Shown: in pieces, positions 50,313 to 58,106 of the stretch
Position numbering within the stretch: the first letter of the stretch is position 1
How the letters are laid out: the number at the start of each line of letters is the position of its first letter
Source of the DNA: Candidatus Velthaea sp.
GTDB lineage: Bacteria > Vulcanimicrobiota > Vulcanimicrobiia > Vulcanimicrobiales > Vulcanimicrobiaceae
Reading direction: 5' to 3'
Length of the DNA: 64,000 nt
Assembly (NCBI GenBank): GCA_050012475.1
Contig: JBEKHC010000039.1
Location: 1-64,000 of the forward strand
Notes under the pieces: model-generated
Seen by the model: only the letters and a program-made list of their open reading frames with translations
Told to the model about the DNA's origin: nothing
Database searches by the model: none
Made by a program: the position numbers and the translations under genes

Positions 50313-51605
50313 ATGAAATCTTATTTCGCGATCGCTCTTTGCGCGATCGTCGCCGGCCTGCCGTCTGCCGCGCTGGCAACTGACGGGTATTTCACTCTCG
50401 GGACGGGCCCGATCCAAGACGGGCTGGCTGGGGCGGGCGTCGCACTTCCGCAAGATAGCGCGGTTGCGGCCGTCAACCCCGCAGGCCTCGTTCGCGTCGG
50501 CAACACCTGGGAGTTCGGCGCCGCACTTTTCGCACCGTATCGGCAATATTCGGTGGACGGAACGCCGTCCGGTGCGACCGGGACGTTCGGGCTCGCGCGC
50601 GGCACCGTGAAAAGCTTGGACGATAACTTTCTGCTTCCGCACGCATCGTTGAGCCGTCGAATCGACACGAAATCCGCCTGGGGCCTGGCCTTTTACGGCA
50701 ACGGCGGCCTGAATACAACCTACCCGGGGGCAGGTCCCGGGACGGGTACCTTCTTCGCGGGCCCGACCGGCGTCAATCTCGTGCAGATCTTTCTCGCGCC
50801 CACCTATTCCCGCGCGATCGGCGACAAACTCGCGGTCGGGGTCTCGCTGACCGGATCGTACCAGGCGTTTCGTGCGACGGGGTTGGCGAACTTCGGACCG
50901 TTCGTAAGCGACGGCCATCCTGGCAATCTTGCCAATCGCGGCGCGGAAGGCTCATGGGGAGTCGGCGGCCGTGTTGGGGTGCTCTACGACGCGACGCCGG
51001 CCTTGACGCTCGGCGCGGCATATCAGAGCGTTACGTCACAGTCGTCGTTCGCGAAGTACGCGGACCTTTTCGCGCAGCAAGGTAGCTTCAACATTCCGGC
51101 GACGGCCACGGCCGGTCTCGCCTGGAAATTCGCGCCGTCCGTGGTCGCGCTCGACGTCGAGCACATCTGGTACGGCCGCATCGCGGCGGTGGCGAATCCA
51201 TTTTCCAATCTCAACATCGGCCTGGCCACGGGCAACCCGTCGTACTTGCTCGGGGGCACGAACGGTCCGGGATTCGGCTGGCACGACACCACGTTCTACA
51301 AGGCCGGATACCAAATCGCGTTGTCGCAGCGCCTGACGTTGCGCGCCGGTGCCGCCTATGGACGGCAACCAATTCCGTCGTCCGACGTGTTGTTCAACAT
51401 ACTCGCACCGGCGGTTACCGAATGGCACTTCGCGCTTGGAGGAACGGTGAAGACGACCAACCATGGCGAAGTGAGTGCGGCCGTCGTCGACGTGCCAACG
51501 GGCTCGGTGAGCGGACCAAACCCGCTCGAGGTGCCCGGACGCCAGCAGATCATGCTCGCGATGCATCAATTCGAGATCGAAGTCGGCTACGGCCGCAAAT
51601 ATTGA
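50313..51605 (+). CDS. OmpP1/FadL-family outer-membrane transporter
   Basis: Signal peptide, ATDGYF, GLAGAGVA, NPAGL hatch motif, GNGGLNT, GFGW, NILAPAV. Confidence 0.85.
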   Translation: MKSYFAIALCAIVAGLPSAALATDGYFTLGTGPIQDGLAGAGVALPQDSAVAAVNPAGLVRVGNTWEFGAALFAPYRQYSVDGTPSGATGTFGLARGTVKSLDDNFLLPHASLSRRIDTKSAWGLAFYGNGGLNTTYPGAGPGTGTFFAGPTGVNLVQIFLAPTYSRAIGDKLAVGVSLTGSYQAFRATGLANFGPFVSDGHPGNLANRGAEGSWGVGGRVGVLYDATPALTLGAAYQSVTSQSSFAKYADLFAQQGSFNIPATATAGLAWKFAPSVVALDVEHIWYGRIAAVANPFSNLNIGLATGNPSYLLGGTNGPGFGWHDTTFYKAGYQIALSQRLTLRAGAAYGRQPIPSSDVLFNILAPAVTEWHFALGGTVKTTNHGEVSAAVVDVPTGSVSGPNPLEVPGRQQIMLAMHQFEIEVGYGRKY

Positions 51606-51612
51606 TGGAACG

Positions 51613-52074
51613 ATGATAATACACCCCGCACCTGCGCAATCCGATTGCATCACGCTCATCCCGCTATCGATCGTCCGGCTCAACCGGTTGACGATTTTGT
51701 GCAGCGTGATCCTCGCTTACGTGCTGCACGCACCGCTCATTACGACCGCGTTGTTCGTCATCGTGACGCTCGCCGCCGGTTTCGGGCGCCGCGCCAGCCT
51801 CATCTATGCCGTCGGCCGGCTCGTTCTGCGACCGGCCAAGCCGGCAACCGACGGTGAAGACCCGCGCTTGATGCGCTTCAACAACACGCTCGCCGCGATC
51901 ATCCTCGGTCTCGCGCAAGTCGCTTTCGTTCTGCACGCACCGCTCGTTGGTTGGATTTTCGCCGGCCTGGCCGCGCTCGCCGCGGCGGTCGCGCTTGCCG
52001 GCTTCTGCTTCGGCTGTTTCTTGTTCTACCAGTTTAAACTCAACCGCGCCCGGCTCTTTGGTTCGACGAAGTGA
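51613..52074 (+). CDS. DUF4395-like membrane protein
   Basis: VRLN, EDPRLMRF, GFCFGCFLF. Confidence 0.7.
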   Translation: MIIHPAPAQSDCITLIPLSIVRLNRLTILCSVILAYVLHAPLITTALFVIVTLAAGFGRRASLIYAVGRLVLRPAKPATDGEDPRLMRFNNTLAAIILGLAQVAFVLHAPLVGWIFAGLAALAAAVALAGFCFGCFLFYQFKLNRARLFGSTK

Positions 52075-52202: not shown

Positions 52203-53219
52203 ATGAACGCGAATGCAAACACCGGCGCAACGCACGGCTTTGTCGGTACGATCGGGAACACGCCGTTGATCGAACTGCCGAAACTATCGGCCGCGCTCGG
52301 ACGAACGATTCTCGGGAAGGCCGAATTCTTGAATCCCGGCGGGTCGGTAAAAGATCGCGCGGCGCGCGGCATTATCGAGGATTTCGAGCGCCGCGGTCTC
52401 CTCGTACCGGGCGGCACGGTCGTCGAAGGCACCGCCGGCAATACGGGCATTGGCCTGGCCCTGGTCGGCAACGCGCGCGGCTATCGCACGGTCATCGTCA
52501 TGCCCGACGATCAGGCCGAAGAGAAGTACGCACTGCTGCGAGCATATGGAGCGGATCTACACGTCGTCGAAGCCGCGCCGTTCACCAATGAAACGAAGAA
52601 CTACTACCACGTTGCTCGGCGACTGGCCGAATCGATCCCGGGCGCCGTGTGGGCGAATCAATTCGAGAACACCGCGAACTACGACGCCCACGAACGGACG
52701 ACCGGGCCGGAAATCTACGCGCAAGCTGGGGGCAACCTCACCGCCTTCGTCGCCGCCGCGGGAACCGGCGGGACCATCGCCGGCGTCGGCCGCGCCCTGC
52801 GCGAGCGAGATCCGCGCATCAAGATCGTACTCGCCGACCCATACGGCTCGGCGCTCTTCAACTACATCAAACACGGCAAGCTCGAAGCCGAAGGCGATTC
52901 GAATGCCGAAGGGATTGGAATCAAGCGGATCACCGCCAATTTCAGCGCCGCACCGATCGACGACGCTGTGCGCATCGACGATCGAACCATGGTCGAGATG
53001 GCGCACTGGCTCTTGCGGGAAGAAGGACTGTTTCTCGGTGGGTCAGCGGGTCTCAATGTCGCCGCCGCCGCCCGTTTTGCCGCGACACTGCCGGCCGGCA
53101 GCCGCATCGCCACGATCCTGTGCGACGGAGGCGACCGTTACCGTTCGCGCCTGTACGATAGCGCATGGTTAGCTGAAAACGGCGTCACTCCAACCGCGCA
53201 TGATCTCTCATTCCTCTGA
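52203..53219 (+). CDS. cysK: Cysteine synthase (O-acetylserine sulfhydrylase family)
   Basis: NPGGSVKDR, EGTAGNTG, WANQFEN, GTGGT, EEGLFLGGS, TILCD. Confidence 0.85.
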   Translation: MNANANTGATHGFVGTIGNTPLIELPKLSAALGRTILGKAEFLNPGGSVKDRAARGIIEDFERRGLLVPGGTVVEGTAGNTGIGLALVGNARGYRTVIVMPDDQAEEKYALLRAYGADLHVVEAAPFTNETKNYYHVARRLAESIPGAVWANQFENTANYDAHERTTGPEIYAQAGGNLTAFVAAAGTGGTIAGVGRALRERDPRIKIVLADPYGSALFNYIKHGKLEAEGDSNAEGIGIKRITANFSAAPIDDAVRIDDRTMVEMAHWLLREEGLFLGGSAGLNVAAAARFAATLPAGSRIATILCDGGDRYRSRLYDSAWLAENGVTPTAHDLSFL

Positions 53220-53561
53220 AAGTCCCGTTTCAAGCGTCCTGATGAAGATCATTGACCAGTCGTGTACGCTAGGCTCCCGTTGCGCGGCGCCTCAACGTTT
53301 GTGCATTTGCTGAAATCGCCGGGCACGAGCGTTCCAGGGCAGTGCGTTATCCGCTATATTGGACAAGCGGGAGGTTAAAGCGGAACCGAGCCCTTCTTCA
53401 TCACCCAAAATTCCGTTGTAGTGGACAGGATGGTATCGATGTCCCATTTGTAGCATTGTCTGCCCCTTACAAGCGCGTTACGATTGAATCACCAGCACGG
53501 CCAAGGTTGATGGTCGAGCAAACGAGACTATCGCTTTCCACAGCAAAAGGATGCTAAAACG

Positions 53562-53978
53562 ATGATGCCCGCGATGCAGATGCCGACGAACGGAATGATG
53601 AACCCCATGATGAGCATGCCGATGAACCCAATGATGAGCATGCCGATGAACCCGATGATGAACCCCATGATGATGAACGGCATGATGGGCATGCCGATGA
53701 ATCCGATGATGATGAACATGATGGGCATGCCGATGAATCCCATGATGATGAACGGCATGATGGGCATGCCAATGCCAATGCCGATGATGATGTGTACAAT
53801 GACCTGCGAGATGACGCCCGAAGGCATGGTCTGTACCATGAAGCCGATGGACGGCATGTCGATGGATATGATGAAAGACTGTTGCGAACGCATGAACGCA
53901 GCAATGTCGATGGGAATGCCCGCGATGATGATGTGTTCCAATATGCCCATGATGATGTGCATGCCCGCGAAGAAATAG
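53562..53978 (+). CDS. Extremely methionine-rich small protein with internal MPMNPMM repeats
   Basis: 138 aa, about 62 Met and 7 Cys by hand count; AAGGA RBS; own terminator. Confidence 0.75.
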   Translation: MMPAMQMPTNGMMNPMMSMPMNPMMSMPMNPMMNPMMMNGMMGMPMNPMMMNMMGMPMNPMMMNGMMGMPMPMPMMMCTMTCEMTPEGMVCTMKPMDGMSMDMMKDCCERMNAAMSMGMPAMMMCSNMPMMMCMPAKK

Positions 53979-54005
53979 CTGCCCGACGCACCTGGCGGCT
54001 TTTTT
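53977..54005 (+). terminator. Probable terminator of the Met-rich gene
   Basis: AGCTGCC/GGCGGCT then T5. Confidence 0.5.
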
Positions 54006-54364
54006 ATCCGAAAACAGGGGCGCTTCGATCAGGCCGACGTTTCGATGACGCTGCGGAACGTCGGCCTCGAAGTGAATTGCATTCCCGCTTCAAACAAGCG
54101 CGATGGGGGTGGGTCTCACCGATAACTACGTTGCTGGATTCGTAACGCCGCCGTTGTTCCATCGTCGTCGATCACTTCGGCTTCGCTCTCGCCTGGCGTT
54201 TACTCGCACTCTTATTGACCGGCGCGGCGCTGATCGTGCTGTTCGGCGGCGACCATGTTCGACGAGGAATATCGTGAAGGCCCAAGGCCCTCACTTTTGC
54301 GCAGCGCCCGACCGAGTTCATTTGCCAGCACAATGCCATGGCTCAGCCGTGCACAAAAGGTTTT

Positions 54365-54940
54365 CTATCCGATCGGGTCGACGTATGTCATTACCAAAAA
54401 CATGAGCGCTTCGATTTGGCCGACATTTCGATAATGATGGGGAACGTCGGCATCGAAGAGAATCGCATCGCCGACTTCGAGAACGTGGAGTTGCGCCTCG
54501 ACCGCAATTTCCACAGTTCCCTTGCTGACCACTAAGTTCTCGACGGTTCCCGTCGCATGGGCTTCGGCTTTTTCCAGACCCTTCGAACTCAGGCGCAATT
54601 CGTAGAATTCGACTCTGCGTTGACTATCGAAAGGGAACAACGCTCGCGACGTAAACTCCCGCGAACTCGATATCAGGACTTTCGAGTCGGCTGCTTTTAA
54701 TACCGTGGGACCGTGGCTGTGCGGTCCGCCGGTGAGGGCAGATAGCGGAATCTCCAGCGCTCTTGCGACTTTCCAAAGCAGGTTGATCGTCGGAGCACTG
54801 CGTCCCAGTTCAATTTGGCCGAGCATCGCCCGGCTGACGCCGGAGATTTGCGCGAGACGCTCGAGCGAGTATCCGCGGCGGGATCGCAGCAGCCGCAAAT
54901 TATGGCCGACGACTGCCGAAAGATCCTCTTCATCGGCCAA
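54365..54940 (-). CDS. XRE-cupin transcriptional regulator (SutR/YdcN-like)
   Basis: SGVSRAMLGQIELGRSAPTINLLWKVA HTH; AHATGTVE...GDAILFDADVPHHYRN cupin. Confidence 0.85.
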   Translation of the reverse strand: MADEEDLSAVVGHNLRLLRSRRGYSLERLAQISGVSRAMLGQIELGRSAPTINLLWKVARALEIPLSALTGGPHSHGPTVLKAADSKVLISSSREFTSRALFPFDSQRRVEFYELRLSSKGLEKAEAHATGTVENLVVSKGTVEIAVEAQLHVLEVGDAILFDADVPHHYRNVGQIEALMFLVMTYVDPIG

Positions 54941-55777: not shown

Positions 55778-55845
55778 AATTCCGAACGCGTCTCATTTCC
55801 CGGGCAGTGGACGGCGCCGAAATCGTTTCTCGCTCGTCTTCACCC

Positions 55846-56607
55846 ATGATCGAACTCGACGGGGTCGGCAAGACATACGCAAGTGGTGAGTCGACGGCCG
55901 TCGCGTTAGCGGACGTGCATCTTCGCATCCGTGCTGGCGAGATTTTTGGTGTCATCGGTCGCAGCGGCGCTGGCAAATCAACGCTCGTGCGGTGTATGAA
56001 CCTCCTGGTGCGGCCCACTCTCGGCACGGTTCGCATCGACGGCGTGGAATTGACCGCCCTGCGCGAGCGCGAACTGCGCCGCGAACGCCGCGAGATCGGC
56101 ATGGTCTTCCAGCACTTCAGCTTGCTGGCGTCGCGAACCGTGTATGCCAACGTCGCCTTTCCGCTCGAACTCGCCGGAACGCCGCGCCGCGAGATCGACA
56201 GCGCGGTGACGTCGCTGCTGTCATTCGTCGGTCTGTCAGAACTGCGCGACCGCTATCCGGCGCAAATCAGCGGCGGACAGGCGCAGCGCGTGGGGATCGC
56301 CCGCGCGCTGGCCACCCGGCCGAAGGTGCTGCTCTGCGATGAAGCGACATCCGCTCTCGATCCGCAAACCACCGAGTCGATTCTGGCGCTGCTTCGCCAA
56401 ACGAACCGTGCGTTCGGCGTCACGATCGTCATCATCACGCATGAGATGCGCGTCGTTCGAGCGATCTGCGATCGCGTCGCTGTTATCGAGGCGGGCCGGA
56501 TCGTCGAAATTGCGACACCGGAGGAGATCGCACAGGCGCCTCGTTCCGCGACCGCGCGCGCGTTCTTTTCCGGCGACGTTGCCGAAATAACGGTGGCCGG
56601 ATCGTGA
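55846..56607 (+). CDS. metN: Methionine-type ABC ATP-binding protein, short form without NIL domain
   Basis: GRSGAGKST, FQHFSLL, CDEATSALDPQTT; start could be 55807. Confidence 0.85.
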   Translation: MIELDGVGKTYASGESTAVALADVHLRIRAGEIFGVIGRSGAGKSTLVRCMNLLVRPTLGTVRIDGVELTALRERELRRERREIGMVFQHFSLLASRTVYANVAFPLELAGTPRREIDSAVTSLLSFVGLSELRDRYPAQISGGQAQRVGIARALATRPKVLLCDEATSALDPQTTESILALLRQTNRAFGVTIVIITHEMRVVRAICDRVAVIEAGRIVEIATPEEIAQAPRSATARAFFSGDVAEITVAGS

Positions 56608-57263
56608 CGATCCCCGATAATCTCATCGCACTCATCGCCGGTGCGCTCGGCGAGACACTGCAAATGGTAAGTATCTCCGCGTTGGTCGCGGCGCTCGCCG
56701 GCGTCCCGCTGGGCGTGTTGCTCACGGTCACCGATCGCGGCGGGGTACGGGAGAATTTGCCGCTCAACCGGACGGTCGGTGCGATCGTGAACGCGACCCG
56801 CTCGACTCCGTTCATCATCTTGATGGTCGCGATCATCCCGTTTACCCGCTTTATCGTGCACACGTCGATCGGAACGAACGCTGCGATCGTGCCGCTTTCG
56901 GTCGCGGCGATTCCGTTCTTTGGCCGGCTCGTGCAAGCAAGTCTGCGTGAAGTTCCCGAGCAAGTCGTCGAAGCGGCCAGTGCGATGGGTGCCTCGCCGA
57001 TGCAGATCGCCGTCTTCGTGTTGCTCCCCGAAGCCCTGCCCTCGATCGTAGCAGCCTTTACCGTTACGTTCGTCAGCCTGATCGGCTACTCGGCGATGGC
57101 CGGCGCCGTGGGCGGCGGCGGCCTCGGCGATTTAGGCATCCGCTACGGCTACGAGCGGTTTGAGCCGGCCGTCATGCTCGCTACCGTTGCCGTTCTCATC
57201 ATCCTCGTCCAACTCGTTCAGATGCTTGGCGACCGCATTGCGCGGCGCCTTTCCCACCGTTAA
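56604..57263 (+). CDS. metI: Methionine-type ABC permease
   Basis: RSTPFIILM, YSAMAGAVGGGGLGDL. Confidence 0.9.
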   Translation: MTIPDNLIALIAGALGETLQMVSISALVAALAGVPLGVLLTVTDRGGVRENLPLNRTVGAIVNATRSTPFIILMVAIIPFTRFIVHTSIGTNAAIVPLSVAAIPFFGRLVQASLREVPEQVVEAASAMGASPMQIAVFVLLPEALPSIVAAFTVTFVSLIGYSAMAGAVGGGGLGDLGIRYGYERFEPAVMLATVAVLIILVQLVQMLGDRIARRLSHR

Positions 57264-57272
57264 GGAGTCAAC

Positions 57273-58106
57273 GTGTTCGTGTCCCGCCGCCGCCGTCGAG
57301 CCGGTTCGCACCTGGCAGCGCTGCTCGCAATCTTCATGAGCCTGGCTACGAGTTCGGCTGTCCTCGCCGATCAAACCATCAAAGTCGGCGTGACTCCGGG
57401 GCCGCACGAAGAGATTCTCGATGAAGTCTCCCGTCTGGGCGCAAAACAAGGGCTGTCGATTCAGGTCATTCCGATCAGCGATTATGCGGTCCCGAATGCC
57501 GCGCTCGATGCCGGCGATCTCGACGCGAACAGCTTCCAGAATCCGCCGTTTCTGGCAAAGCAAATCGCTGACCGTCACTTCAACATCGTTGCCGTGGGCA
57601 AGACGATTTTCTTACCGATGGGAATTTATTCGAAGAAGATTCGTACACTCGGCGCACTGACAGACGGCGCAGTCGTGGCAATCCCCAACGATCCGACCAA
57701 CGGCGCGCGCGCCCTGCTCTTATTGCAAAGCGCAAAACTCATCCGGCTCAAAGACGGGGGCAACCGGCTTTCGTCTCCGCAGGACATTGTCGACAATCCC
57801 AAACACCTGACGATTCGCGAGCTCAACGCGGCCCAAACACCGCGCTCCCTCGACGATCTCGACGCCGCCGCCATCAATGGCAACTATGCCGCAACGGCCG
57901 GACTGGCGCCGAGCCGGGACGCGCTTTTTTCCGAAGGCGGCGGCGTCGGCGAAGCACTCCAATCGGTGTACAGCAACATCATCGCCGTGCGCACCGTCGA
58001 CCAAGGGAAGCCGTGGGTGGCGCAACTGGTCGCCGTCTACCATTCGAGCGCGATCCGGGGCTTCATCATCCGCCATTTCGGCGGCACGATCTATCCGGCA
58101 TTTTGA
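57273..58106 (+). CDS. metQ: MetQ/NlpA-family substrate-binding protein
   Basis: VGVTPGPH, DANSFQ, PNDPTNGARAL, AAQTPRSLDD. Confidence 0.9.
   Translation: MFVSRRRRRAGSHLAALLAIFMSLATSSAVLADQTIKVGVTPGPHEEILDEVSRLGAKQGLSIQVIPISDYAVPNAALDAGDLDANSFQNPPFLAKQIADRHFNIVAVGKTIFLPMGIYSKKIRTLGALTDGAVVAIPNDPTNGARALLLLQSAKLIRLKDGGNRLSSPQDIVDNPKHLTIRELNAAQTPRSLDDLDAAAINGNYAATAGLAPSRDALFSEGGGVGEALQSVYSNIIAVRTVDQGKPWVAQLVAVYHSSAIRGFIIRHFGGTIYPAF

Follow-up and report, generated by a model that had tools for sequence, protein, structure and literature searches.

A rare methionine-rich protein family paired with an XRE-cupin regulator and its possible role as a methionine and sulfur reserve

The window analyzed here, a 64,000-nucleotide stretch of Candidatus Velthaea sp. 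DNA (contig JBEKHC010000039.1, positions 1 to 64,000), carries on its forward strand, at 53562..53978, an open reading frame (ORF) for a 138-residue protein that is nearly half methionine. As judged from comparison with its relatives, this Met-rich ORF is a real gene of an unnamed, rare family. An orthologous regulator of the XRE-cupin type lies beside the gene in most of the loci that carry it, a short dyad is conserved upstream, and genes for sulfur, cysteine, or methionine metabolism recur nearby in several phyla. We tentatively propose that the protein may act as a methionine-induced sink and reserve of methionine and sulfur, a reading that we prefer to the others but rate at somewhat less than an even chance, and which we weigh below against oxidant scavenging, metal binding, and a regulatory role.

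The methionine-rich gene and its family

The composition of the product agreed exactly with the counts of the initial annotation, namely, 62 Met (44.9%) and 7 Cys (5.1%), alongside 20 Pro and 12 Asn. All seven cysteines fell within residues 75-138, matching the Cys-bearing C-terminal part described there, and the synonymous variation reported for the ORF was found as well (AAC 9 and AAT 3; CCG 9, CCC 8, and CCA 3). Tandem Repeats Finder resolved the claimed tandem repeats into overlapping arrays at 53580-53787, with periods of 12-75 and 58-93% matches. By calculation, the mature product has a mass of 15.6 kDa and a pI of 5.0, and consists by mass of 52% methionine and 14% sulfur; only 11 of its 138 residues (8%) are charged. 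Among the 32,867 ORFs of at least 60 residues in the genome, it ranked first in Met content, which is far above chance: the runner-up reached 15.3% and the likely genes averaged 2.0% (standard deviation, 1.0%). This runner-up, 124 residues long and encoded outside the window (contig C24:36908-37279), has a signal-peptide-like N-terminus and could be a Met-rich protein of the periplasm, either MrpX-like or copper-binding. Inspection by eye of the N-terminus of the window's protein (MMPAMQMPTNG) revealed no signal peptide, with neither a basic n-region nor a hydrophobic h-region, and the protein is probably cytoplasmic.

The claimed ribosome-binding site corresponds to a Shine-Dalgarno-like AGGA, 10 nt ahead of the start codon (Table 1). 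The claimed terminator escaped a consensus scan because its loop exceeds the limit of that scan, and was recovered by folding 53972-54012, which yielded a hairpin at 53977-54000 (-13.1 kcal/mol; z, -2.3) followed by six U residues. The initial annotation had seen no attenuator leader, and we agree: no Rfam leader or riboswitch was found at threshold near the gene, none was found in 53100-54500 at E <= 10, and 10 related loci searched with gathering scores gave none either, the only elements detected there being an unrelated TPP element and a tRNA. Sub-threshold matches at 53570-53990 to archaeal and eukaryotic C/D-box snoRNAs are artefacts, since the repeated ATGATGA mimics the C box. The ORF itself differs from an attenuator leader peptide in its length of 138 residues, in a conserved domain that is folded in the structural model, in having its own terminator-like hairpin, and in the convergent orientation of the downstream gene.

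A word-indexed protein search with the Met-rich protein returned 56 homologues (E <= 0.01), none of which carried a Pfam domain or a name more informative than "hypothetical." A genome scan using one genome per species gave 183 pattern matches, 101 of them encoding relatives, from which 80 loci were kept; together with the window, these form the set of 81 loci used below. (A first alignment, A1, was too diverse for use in the locus scan.) Family members are 75-200 residues long (median, 149) and contain 35-49% Met (median, 43%). They share a conserved start, M-x-x-A-M-Q-M-P, followed by a low-complexity part made of Met, Pro, Gly, Asn, Ser, and Gln, whose length and repeat unit vary freely, and then by a conserved domain of about 62 residues with the consensus MMCxMTCEMTKDGMVCKMMPM..(5)..DMMKECCxAMxxMMxMGMPMMMMCGGMPMMMC. 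In the family alignment, Gly88, Pro95, Gly118, and Pro120 are invariant or nearly so, and Cys91, Cys108, and Cys125 are nearly invariant; the remaining cysteines vary (C82 being frequent), and a few members lack several of them (e.g., P0029 and P0040). In Xanthomonadales and some other Gammaproteobacteria (L016, L019, L030, L031, L037, L040, L042, and L070), the domain is present twice in tandem, and the protein then contains 15-19 Cys.

AlphaFold2 left residues 1-74 unstructured and predicted a hairpin-helix-hairpin for the Met/Cys domain, with a predicted local distance difference test score (pLDDT) of 70.6 and a predicted template modeling score of 0.43. Foldseek against the PDB returned no match to this fold at E <= 0.001, VIA-align against 48,161 chains reached a best Z of only 2.7, a sequence profile search of the PDB with the family gave a best E of 1.4, and the ESM Atlas returned just unnamed "hypothetical protein" clusters; a weak or missing match of this sort is no proof of a new fold. 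The protein likewise matched no Pfam family at E <= 0.01 and no NCBIfam model. Literature searches on the family found no paper; one on Advenella that contains the terms XRE and cupin (PMC5373536) was set aside, as it concerns other proteins.

The family is small and scattered. An exhaustive profile search of 1.84 billion cluster representatives yielded just 74 proteins at E <= 0.001, all of 30-169 residues and none fused to another domain. Carriers include many Myxococcota, some Rhodospirillales and Hyphomicrobiales, Xanthomonadales, and two Eremiobacterota metagenome-assembled genomes. The gene was present in 1 of 60 genomes of the window's relatives and, in a sample of the phylum, in 2 of 300 genomes, both from one other genus, with none in the three genomes of the window's own genus. 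This patchy distribution points to horizontal spread.

Beyond the existence of these relatives, evidence for a real gene came from two further sources. In 92 domain copies taken from the 81 loci, several synonymous codons in the frame of the ORF encode each kind of conserved column (Gly, Pro, Cys, and Glu). Furthermore, 14 metatranscriptome runs from 10 studies (peat, soil, permafrost, and bioreactor) contained 5-20% of the sampled words of 53300-54400. Contigs were compared in detail for four of these runs, each from a different study, and span 53732-53992 (with 2 differences), 53725-53933, and 53740-54005, in addition to short pieces of the repeat part. In these contigs from relatives, 16 of the 21 listed differences lie at third codon positions, and each of the three indels spans 3 nt. 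Such contigs establish the presence of the gene in RNA libraries and a coding constraint on it, not its transcription or the level thereof. No contig of the four runs covers 53300-53595, which is uninformative either way.

The partner regulator and the upstream dyads

As the initial annotation claimed, the next gene encodes a regulator with HTH_3 and Cupin_2 domains (Table 1), an architecture found in all four orthologous regulators scanned with Pfam. E. coli SutR (YdcN), a regulator of sulfur utilization, is also of the XRE-cupin type. When ORFs had been called in the 81 loci and the four neighbors on each side clustered, an orthologue of this regulator was found beside the Met-rich gene in 58 loci from four phyla, in each case on the opposite strand. 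In 53 of these loci the regulator gene is downstream and convergent, as the immediate neighbor in 49 and with gaps of mostly 1-160 bp; in the other five it is upstream and divergent. Xanthomonadales have the divergent arrangement; their upstream region contains another palindrome (GGAAATTTCC), and a gene of the sigma-70 family is adjacent.

Across phyla, the 58 regulators share 45-82% identity with that of the window; the helix-turn-helix is invariant, as are cupin residues H128, G131, T132, E134, H168, and Y170. A search of the 60 relative genomes found the sole close orthologue (77% identity) in the sole carrier of the Met-rich gene, the next best matches being 31-33% identical; a relative with the Met-rich gene that was found later (G166) falls outside this search. 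Across 57 loci, the pairwise identities of the Met-rich gene track those of the regulator gene (Mantel r, 0.76; 0 of 999 permutations), which shows a shared history of the gene pair and not contact between the proteins. We read the Met-rich gene and the regulator gene as a two-gene unit.

The closest solved homologue of the regulator is 1Y9Q from Vibrio cholerae (E of 7e-38 for the family profile and of 9e-25 for the protein of the window), in which H128, E134, H168, and Y170 are matched. As described in excerpts of Trouillon et al. (PMC7901475), 1Y9Q holds D-methionine in its cupin pocket, and in Pseudomonas the XRE-cupin factors act locally and with high specificity, repressing adjacent genes whose proteins handle the sensed metabolite. 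The same excerpts portray these factors as dimers that bind palindromes and that move together with their targets through horizontal transfer (PMC7901475).

Upstream of the Met-rich genes we found a conserved dyad, (CC)TCCG-N6-CGGA(GG)AAA. A loose form of it (TC[CT]G-N6-[CT][GA]GA, 40-250 nt 5' of the ATG) was present in 62 of 79 loci, compared with 121 of 4690 control windows from the same loci (2.6%), and a strict form in 20 of 79 loci, compared with 62 of 4690 control windows. When sequences were anchored on the dyad, TTGnnn appeared 28-30 nt later and TAnnnn a further 17-18 nt on, which we read as -35 and -10 elements; the center of the dyad would then lie near -72 relative to this promoter. 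The corresponding putative promoter of the window agrees with the consensus at 8 of 12 positions, which leaves it under the threshold of a consensus scan; its TACGAT, with TTGnnn 17 nt upstream, recurs in the Eremiobacterota relatives L011 and L017. It would place the 5' end of the transcript near 53491. An RNA motif had been considered for the conserved upstream GGAGGAAA/TTGAG blocks and was rejected, as they resolve into the DNA dyad and the -35/-10 elements at a fixed spacing.

The window contains two dyads (Table 1), and in many loci, including L058, L061, and L063, a second dyad likewise lies about 50-65 bp upstream of the first. This pairing suggests that two dimers of the regulator sit on one face of the helix. 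We infer that the regulator binds the dyad because the two are co-conserved and because palindromic sites are known for this class of regulator. Searching the 5.36-Mb genome for TCCGYT-N4-YGGA gave 45 sites against an estimated ~41 by chance, a count that is uninformative about a wider regulon, and the only pair within 120 bp was that of the window. Autoregulation was rejected, the dyad occurring 5' of the regulator gene in just 5 of 56 loci.

Candidate functions of the methionine-rich protein

Our tentative proposal of a methionine-induced sink and reserve can be stated in four steps. A dimer of the regulator would bind the TCCG-N6-CGGA dyads upstream of the promoter, and its cupin pocket would sense methionine or a close sulfur amino acid. 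When this ligand is plentiful, the Met-rich protein would be made, taking up methionine; later, it would be degraded and its methionine and sulfur returned. A protein with 45% Met can be made only when Met is available, and the opposite sign of regulation, synthesis under Met scarcity, was rejected as physiologically senseless for such a protein. The link to sulfur and methionine drawn by the initial annotation received indirect support from the co-conserved XRE-cupin regulator with its homologue 1Y9Q, from the recurrence of Cys, Met, and sulfur genes nearby in several phyla, and from the lack of a signal peptide on inspection by eye; its storage part stays a proposal. With respect to neighbors, sulfur or Cys/Met genes were found within about three genes of the Met-rich gene in 12 of the 29 diverse loci scanned (Table 1), 11 of these 12 being among the 18 loci from outside Myxococcota, a neighborhood that we consider suggestive.

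Several observations weigh against this proposal. The sulfur theme is missing from 10 of the 11 Myxococcota loci scanned, and the tally of neighbors was classified post hoc, without a background rate. By our own ORF calling, 23 of the 81 loci have no orthologous regulator within four genes, some of them lying at contig ends. The regulator shows only modest identity to 1Y9Q, whose ligand could have been an adventitious one in the crystal. A dyad centered near -72 suits an activator, whereas the characterized Pseudomonas XRE-cupin factors are repressors in the excerpted account of them (PMC7901475). A conserved domain with three to four nearly invariant cysteines is not needed in a pure store and suggests a more specific biochemical role, and ribosomal synthesis is a costly way of storing amino acids. 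Finally, the RNA support consists of contigs in RNA libraries, which are no proof of transcription.

A fuller version of the proposed reserve, which we regard as somewhat more speculative, would describe a horizontally mobile two-gene module in which an XRE-cupin regulator senses methionine and turns on the ribosomal synthesis of a protein that is almost half methionine. This protein would be the first protein-based Met and sulfur reserve described in bacteria, and it might form a condensate through its Met/Pro/Gly/Asn low-complexity part and be anchored by a new small Cys/Met fold.

Among the alternatives, which take in the oxidant scavenging and metal binding named by the initial annotation, an oxidant-related function seems unlikely, though it fares best. 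Here the protein would be a cytoplasmic sacrificial oxidant sink or a redox-responsive low-complexity protein, with exposed Met residues that HOCl, chloramines, or H2O2 would oxidize and that the methionine sulfoxide reductases (Msr) MsrA/B would restore, while the regulator would answer oxidative or thiol stress. An N-terminal half with 51% Met and predicted disorder would suit such a sink, and Met-rich proteins are readily oxidized, especially by hypochlorite, and reduced by Msr enzymes, as reported in excerpts of PMC3514235; MrpX, in the excerpts of PMC4436054, provides a precedent for a Met-rich scavenger. MsrA is encoded three genes away in L064 and an AhpC-family gene lies near in L033, but these are the only 2 of the 29 loci scanned with Msr or peroxiredoxin neighbors, and stress genes are rarer as neighbors than Cys/Met biosynthesis genes. 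Nor does the gene show linkage to yedYZ/msrPQ or, by eye, a signal peptide, and its product has 8% charged residues compared with 44% in MrpX (PMC4436054). The family of the regulator is, moreover, described as one of metabolite sensors in the excerpted text of PMC7901475.

We consider a metal-related function rather improbable. The protein would in this case be a cytoplasmic binder of Cu(I), Ag(I), Cd, Hg, or an Fe-S cluster, with the C-terminal cysteines and thioethers as ligands and the Met-rich tail adding soft-metal capacity. The near invariance of C91, C108, and C125 and the frequency of C82 speak for it, as do the 15-19 cysteines of the two-domain Xanthomonadales forms, and Met-rich motifs bind Cu(I). 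However, such Met-rich Cu sites are typically periplasmic, and no signal peptide was seen by eye here; several members lack some of the cysteines (e.g., P0029 and P0040); and searches of Pfam and NCBIfam linked the protein to none of the metal families, metallothionein, Csp, and CopZ included. The partner regulator is also not known to belong to a metal-sensor family. A heavy-metal-type P-type ATPase encoded two genes away in L036 favors metal binding, and it is the metal-related neighbor of just 1 of the 29 loci, although no search aimed at copper families was made.

It is distinctly unlikely that the protein is a co-regulator, that is, a trans-acting sensor whose Met-dense N-terminal part is translated only with plentiful Met-tRNA and whose C-terminal domain then binds the XRE-cupin regulator and alters its activity. 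Such a sensor would fit the strict pairing of the two genes and their common evolutionary history, the small conserved domain with a predicted fold behind a Met tract of variable length, and the absence of fusions to other domains in all 74 representatives, but a shared history is expected of any linked pair, binding between the two proteins is putative, and a tract with 35-49% Met far exceeds what a sensor needs. Finally, that the ORF is a repeat-derived or annotation artefact and not a functional protein gene is scarcely conceivable: an ATG-rich low-complexity repeat does yield long ORFs on the opposite strand too (53528-53962 and 53554-53991), but conservation of the family across phyla with synonymous codon variation in frame, indels of 3 nt, differences biased to third codon positions, and conserved start motif, ribosome-binding site, and terminator all argue against it.

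Genomic context, known systems, and significance

Further along the contig, the surroundings of the two genes fit the initial annotation in part. Cysteine synthase A does lie upstream of the Met-rich gene, as claimed, and its membership in the unit is only putative. The claim that the gene sits among sulfur-poor proteins held for FadL, MetQ, and CysK and failed for MetN, MetI, and DUF4395: the Met+Cys percentiles among 2964 likely genes were 3 for FadL, 4 for MetQ, 11 for CysK, 27 for the regulator, 57 for MetN, 74 for MetI, and 80 for DUF4395. Directly 5' of cysteine synthase and on the same strand (50313-52074), the window encodes a FadL/TodX-type outer-membrane channel (430 residues with 3 Met and 1 Cys) and a DUF4395 membrane protein; channel, DUF4395 protein, and cysteine synthase may constitute a sulfur-related uptake operon. 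Between the terminator and the 3' end of the regulator gene lies a spacer (54008-54393) that is missing in a close relative, an RNA-library contig of which joins 53992 to 54361. It contains an inverted repeat (54031-54044/54054-54067) and looks like a genome-specific insertion or partial duplication.

Table 1. Features of the window around the Met-rich gene and sulfur-related or Cys/Met-related neighbors of the gene across loci
Feature	Location	Strand	Basis or remark
Cysteine synthase A (context; unit membership only putative)	52203..53219	+	NCBIfam NF007989, 451 bits vs cutoff 387
Dyad 1, TCCGCTATATTGGA, putative operator half-sites TCCG/YGGA	53350..53363	+	Match to conserved dyad
Dyad 2, TCCGTTGTAGTGGA	53412..53425	+	62 bp from dyad 1; 30 nt before putative -35
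Putative sigma70-like promoter: TTGTCT, 17 nt, TACGAT	53456..53484	+	By eye; inferred
Shine-Dalgarno-like AGGA	53548..53551	+	10 nt 5' of ATG; AAGGA similarly spaced in L011 and L017
N-terminal low-complexity part (residues 1-74, 51% Met, M/P/N/G/S repeats, conserved start MMPAMQMP)	53562..53783	+	AlphaFold2 pLDDT < 50; homologue lengths vary
Conserved C-terminal Met/Cys domain (residues 75-138; Cys 78, 82, 91, 107, 108, 125, 133) and stop	53784..53978	+	Alignments A1 and A3
Terminator-like hairpin (53977-54000), then T run	53977..54005	+	Folding
Spacer of ~386 bp	54008..54393		Bracketed by 27-nt direct repeat (54008-54034/54394-54420, 81% identical)
XRE (HTH_3) + Cupin_2 regulator, convergent partner	54365..54940	-	Pfam HTH_3 47 bits and Cupin_2 40.5 bits, both above cutoff
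MetN/MetI/MetQ-like methionine ATP-binding cassette transporter (context)	55807..58106	+	MetI passes cutoff; MetN and MetQ best matches below cutoff
CysK; MetNIQ a bit further on	Window, neighbors		CysK passes cutoff
CysK; CBS-domain PALP (CBS-like) enzyme; cystathionine gamma-synthase/lyase-family enzyme	L013, neighbors		CysK passes cutoff
CBS-like gene	L036, neighbor		Below cutoff
CysE	L038, neighbor		Passes cutoff; same cluster in L056 and L062
Sulfate-binding protein; CysB-like regulator	L042, neighbors		Sulfate-binding protein passes cutoff
Multi-rhodanese proteins	L041 and L065, neighbors
Taurine-/sulfonate-type binding proteins	L065 and L058, neighbors		Below or near cutoff
Cystine-type binding protein	L063, neighbor		Below cutoff
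RuBisCO-like protein, next gene after regulator	L011:8121-9278; L017:8121-9242		Best NCBIfam match Met-salvage DK-MTP-1-P enolase, 167-171 bits, below cutoff 409
MsrA	L064, neighbor		Three genes away

Among characterized proteins, MrpX of Azospira suillum offers one comparison. Excerpts of PMC4436054 describe it as periplasmic, with 20% Met, 44% charged residues, a signal peptide, and little sequence conservation, and place it in a yedY1Z1-mrpX operon under SigF/NrsF. In these excerpts it resembles the protein of the window as a small, Met-dominated bacterial protein with a largely unstructured Met-rich part and a dedicated regulator. Our protein differs from it in having 45% Met, 8% charge, no signal peptide by eye, a conserved Cys/Met domain, and an XRE-cupin partner. 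No yedYZ (msrPQ) neighbor was found within three genes in the 29 loci scanned, and the next gene in the window is the convergent regulator. None of the defining features of MrpX that were compared, namely, the signal peptide, the combination of ~20% Met with ~44% charge and little conservation, and the yedYZ linkage, was found here.

A scan of NCBI nr by Liang et al. in 2012, as excerpted (PMC3514235), selected Met-rich proteins with 21-33% Met, including "FeNos" of Nostoc (33% Met and 12% Cys) and the maize delta-zein DZS18 (24% Met); delta-zein is there a genuine store of sulfur and methionine in seeds. The family described here, with 35-49% Met, exceeds this set, FeNos having been compared by description only. 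Zeins are proteins of the eukaryotic secretory pathway, whereas the protein of the window has no Pfam match and hence lies outside the zein and 2S albumin families. The XRE-cupin units known from the excerpts of PMC7901475 (ErfA, PsdR, and PauR of Pseudomonas, and 1Y9Q) are alike in their HTH_3 and Cupin_2 domains, in a location beside the presumed target, in a putative palindromic binding site, and in apparent horizontal transfer. Their targets as described there are enzymes and transporters, whereas the presumed target here is a storage-like protein; and they are repressors thought to occlude promoters, whereas in the present family the dyad precedes the -35 and most of the gene pairs are convergent.

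Other likenesses are more distant. The protein of the window is, like them, small, cytoplasmic by our reading, and rich in sulfur ligands, but bacterial metallothioneins and the Csp copper-storage proteins are small, cytoplasmic proteins rich in Cys, whereas Met prevails here, Cys makes up 5.1%, and no family match was obtained. Yeast ataxin-2 (Pbp1), a eukaryotic protein, forms redox-sensitive condensates through a Met-rich low-complexity domain; it shares a disordered Met-rich region with our protein at a much lower Met density, and we draw on it as a mechanistic analogy only. Known sulfur stores include elemental sulfur in desulfurase encapsulins, thioferrate, and sulfur globules, and our literature searches gave no account of methionine or sulfur being stored in polypeptide form by a bacterial protein.

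Taken together, these results describe a rare protein family with a dedicated regulator and a putative operator, far from any characterized system. Its function is directly testable because the regulator is dedicated and conserved, the putative operator is conserved, and a homologue of the regulator has been crystallized with methionine; cultured carriers include Sorangium cellulosum So ce56, Corallococcus (e.g., Corallococcus terminator), Magnetospirillum fulvum, Pseudoxanthomonas suwonensis (e.g., DSM 17175), and Tianweitania populi. The Met-rich protein could also serve as a very dense source of methionine or as a substrate for Msr assays. If it buffers oxidants or metals, it would still represent a new cytoplasmic solution built on a new small domain, and if it is the reserve that we tentatively propose, it would be the first protein-based methionine and sulfur reserve described in bacteria.

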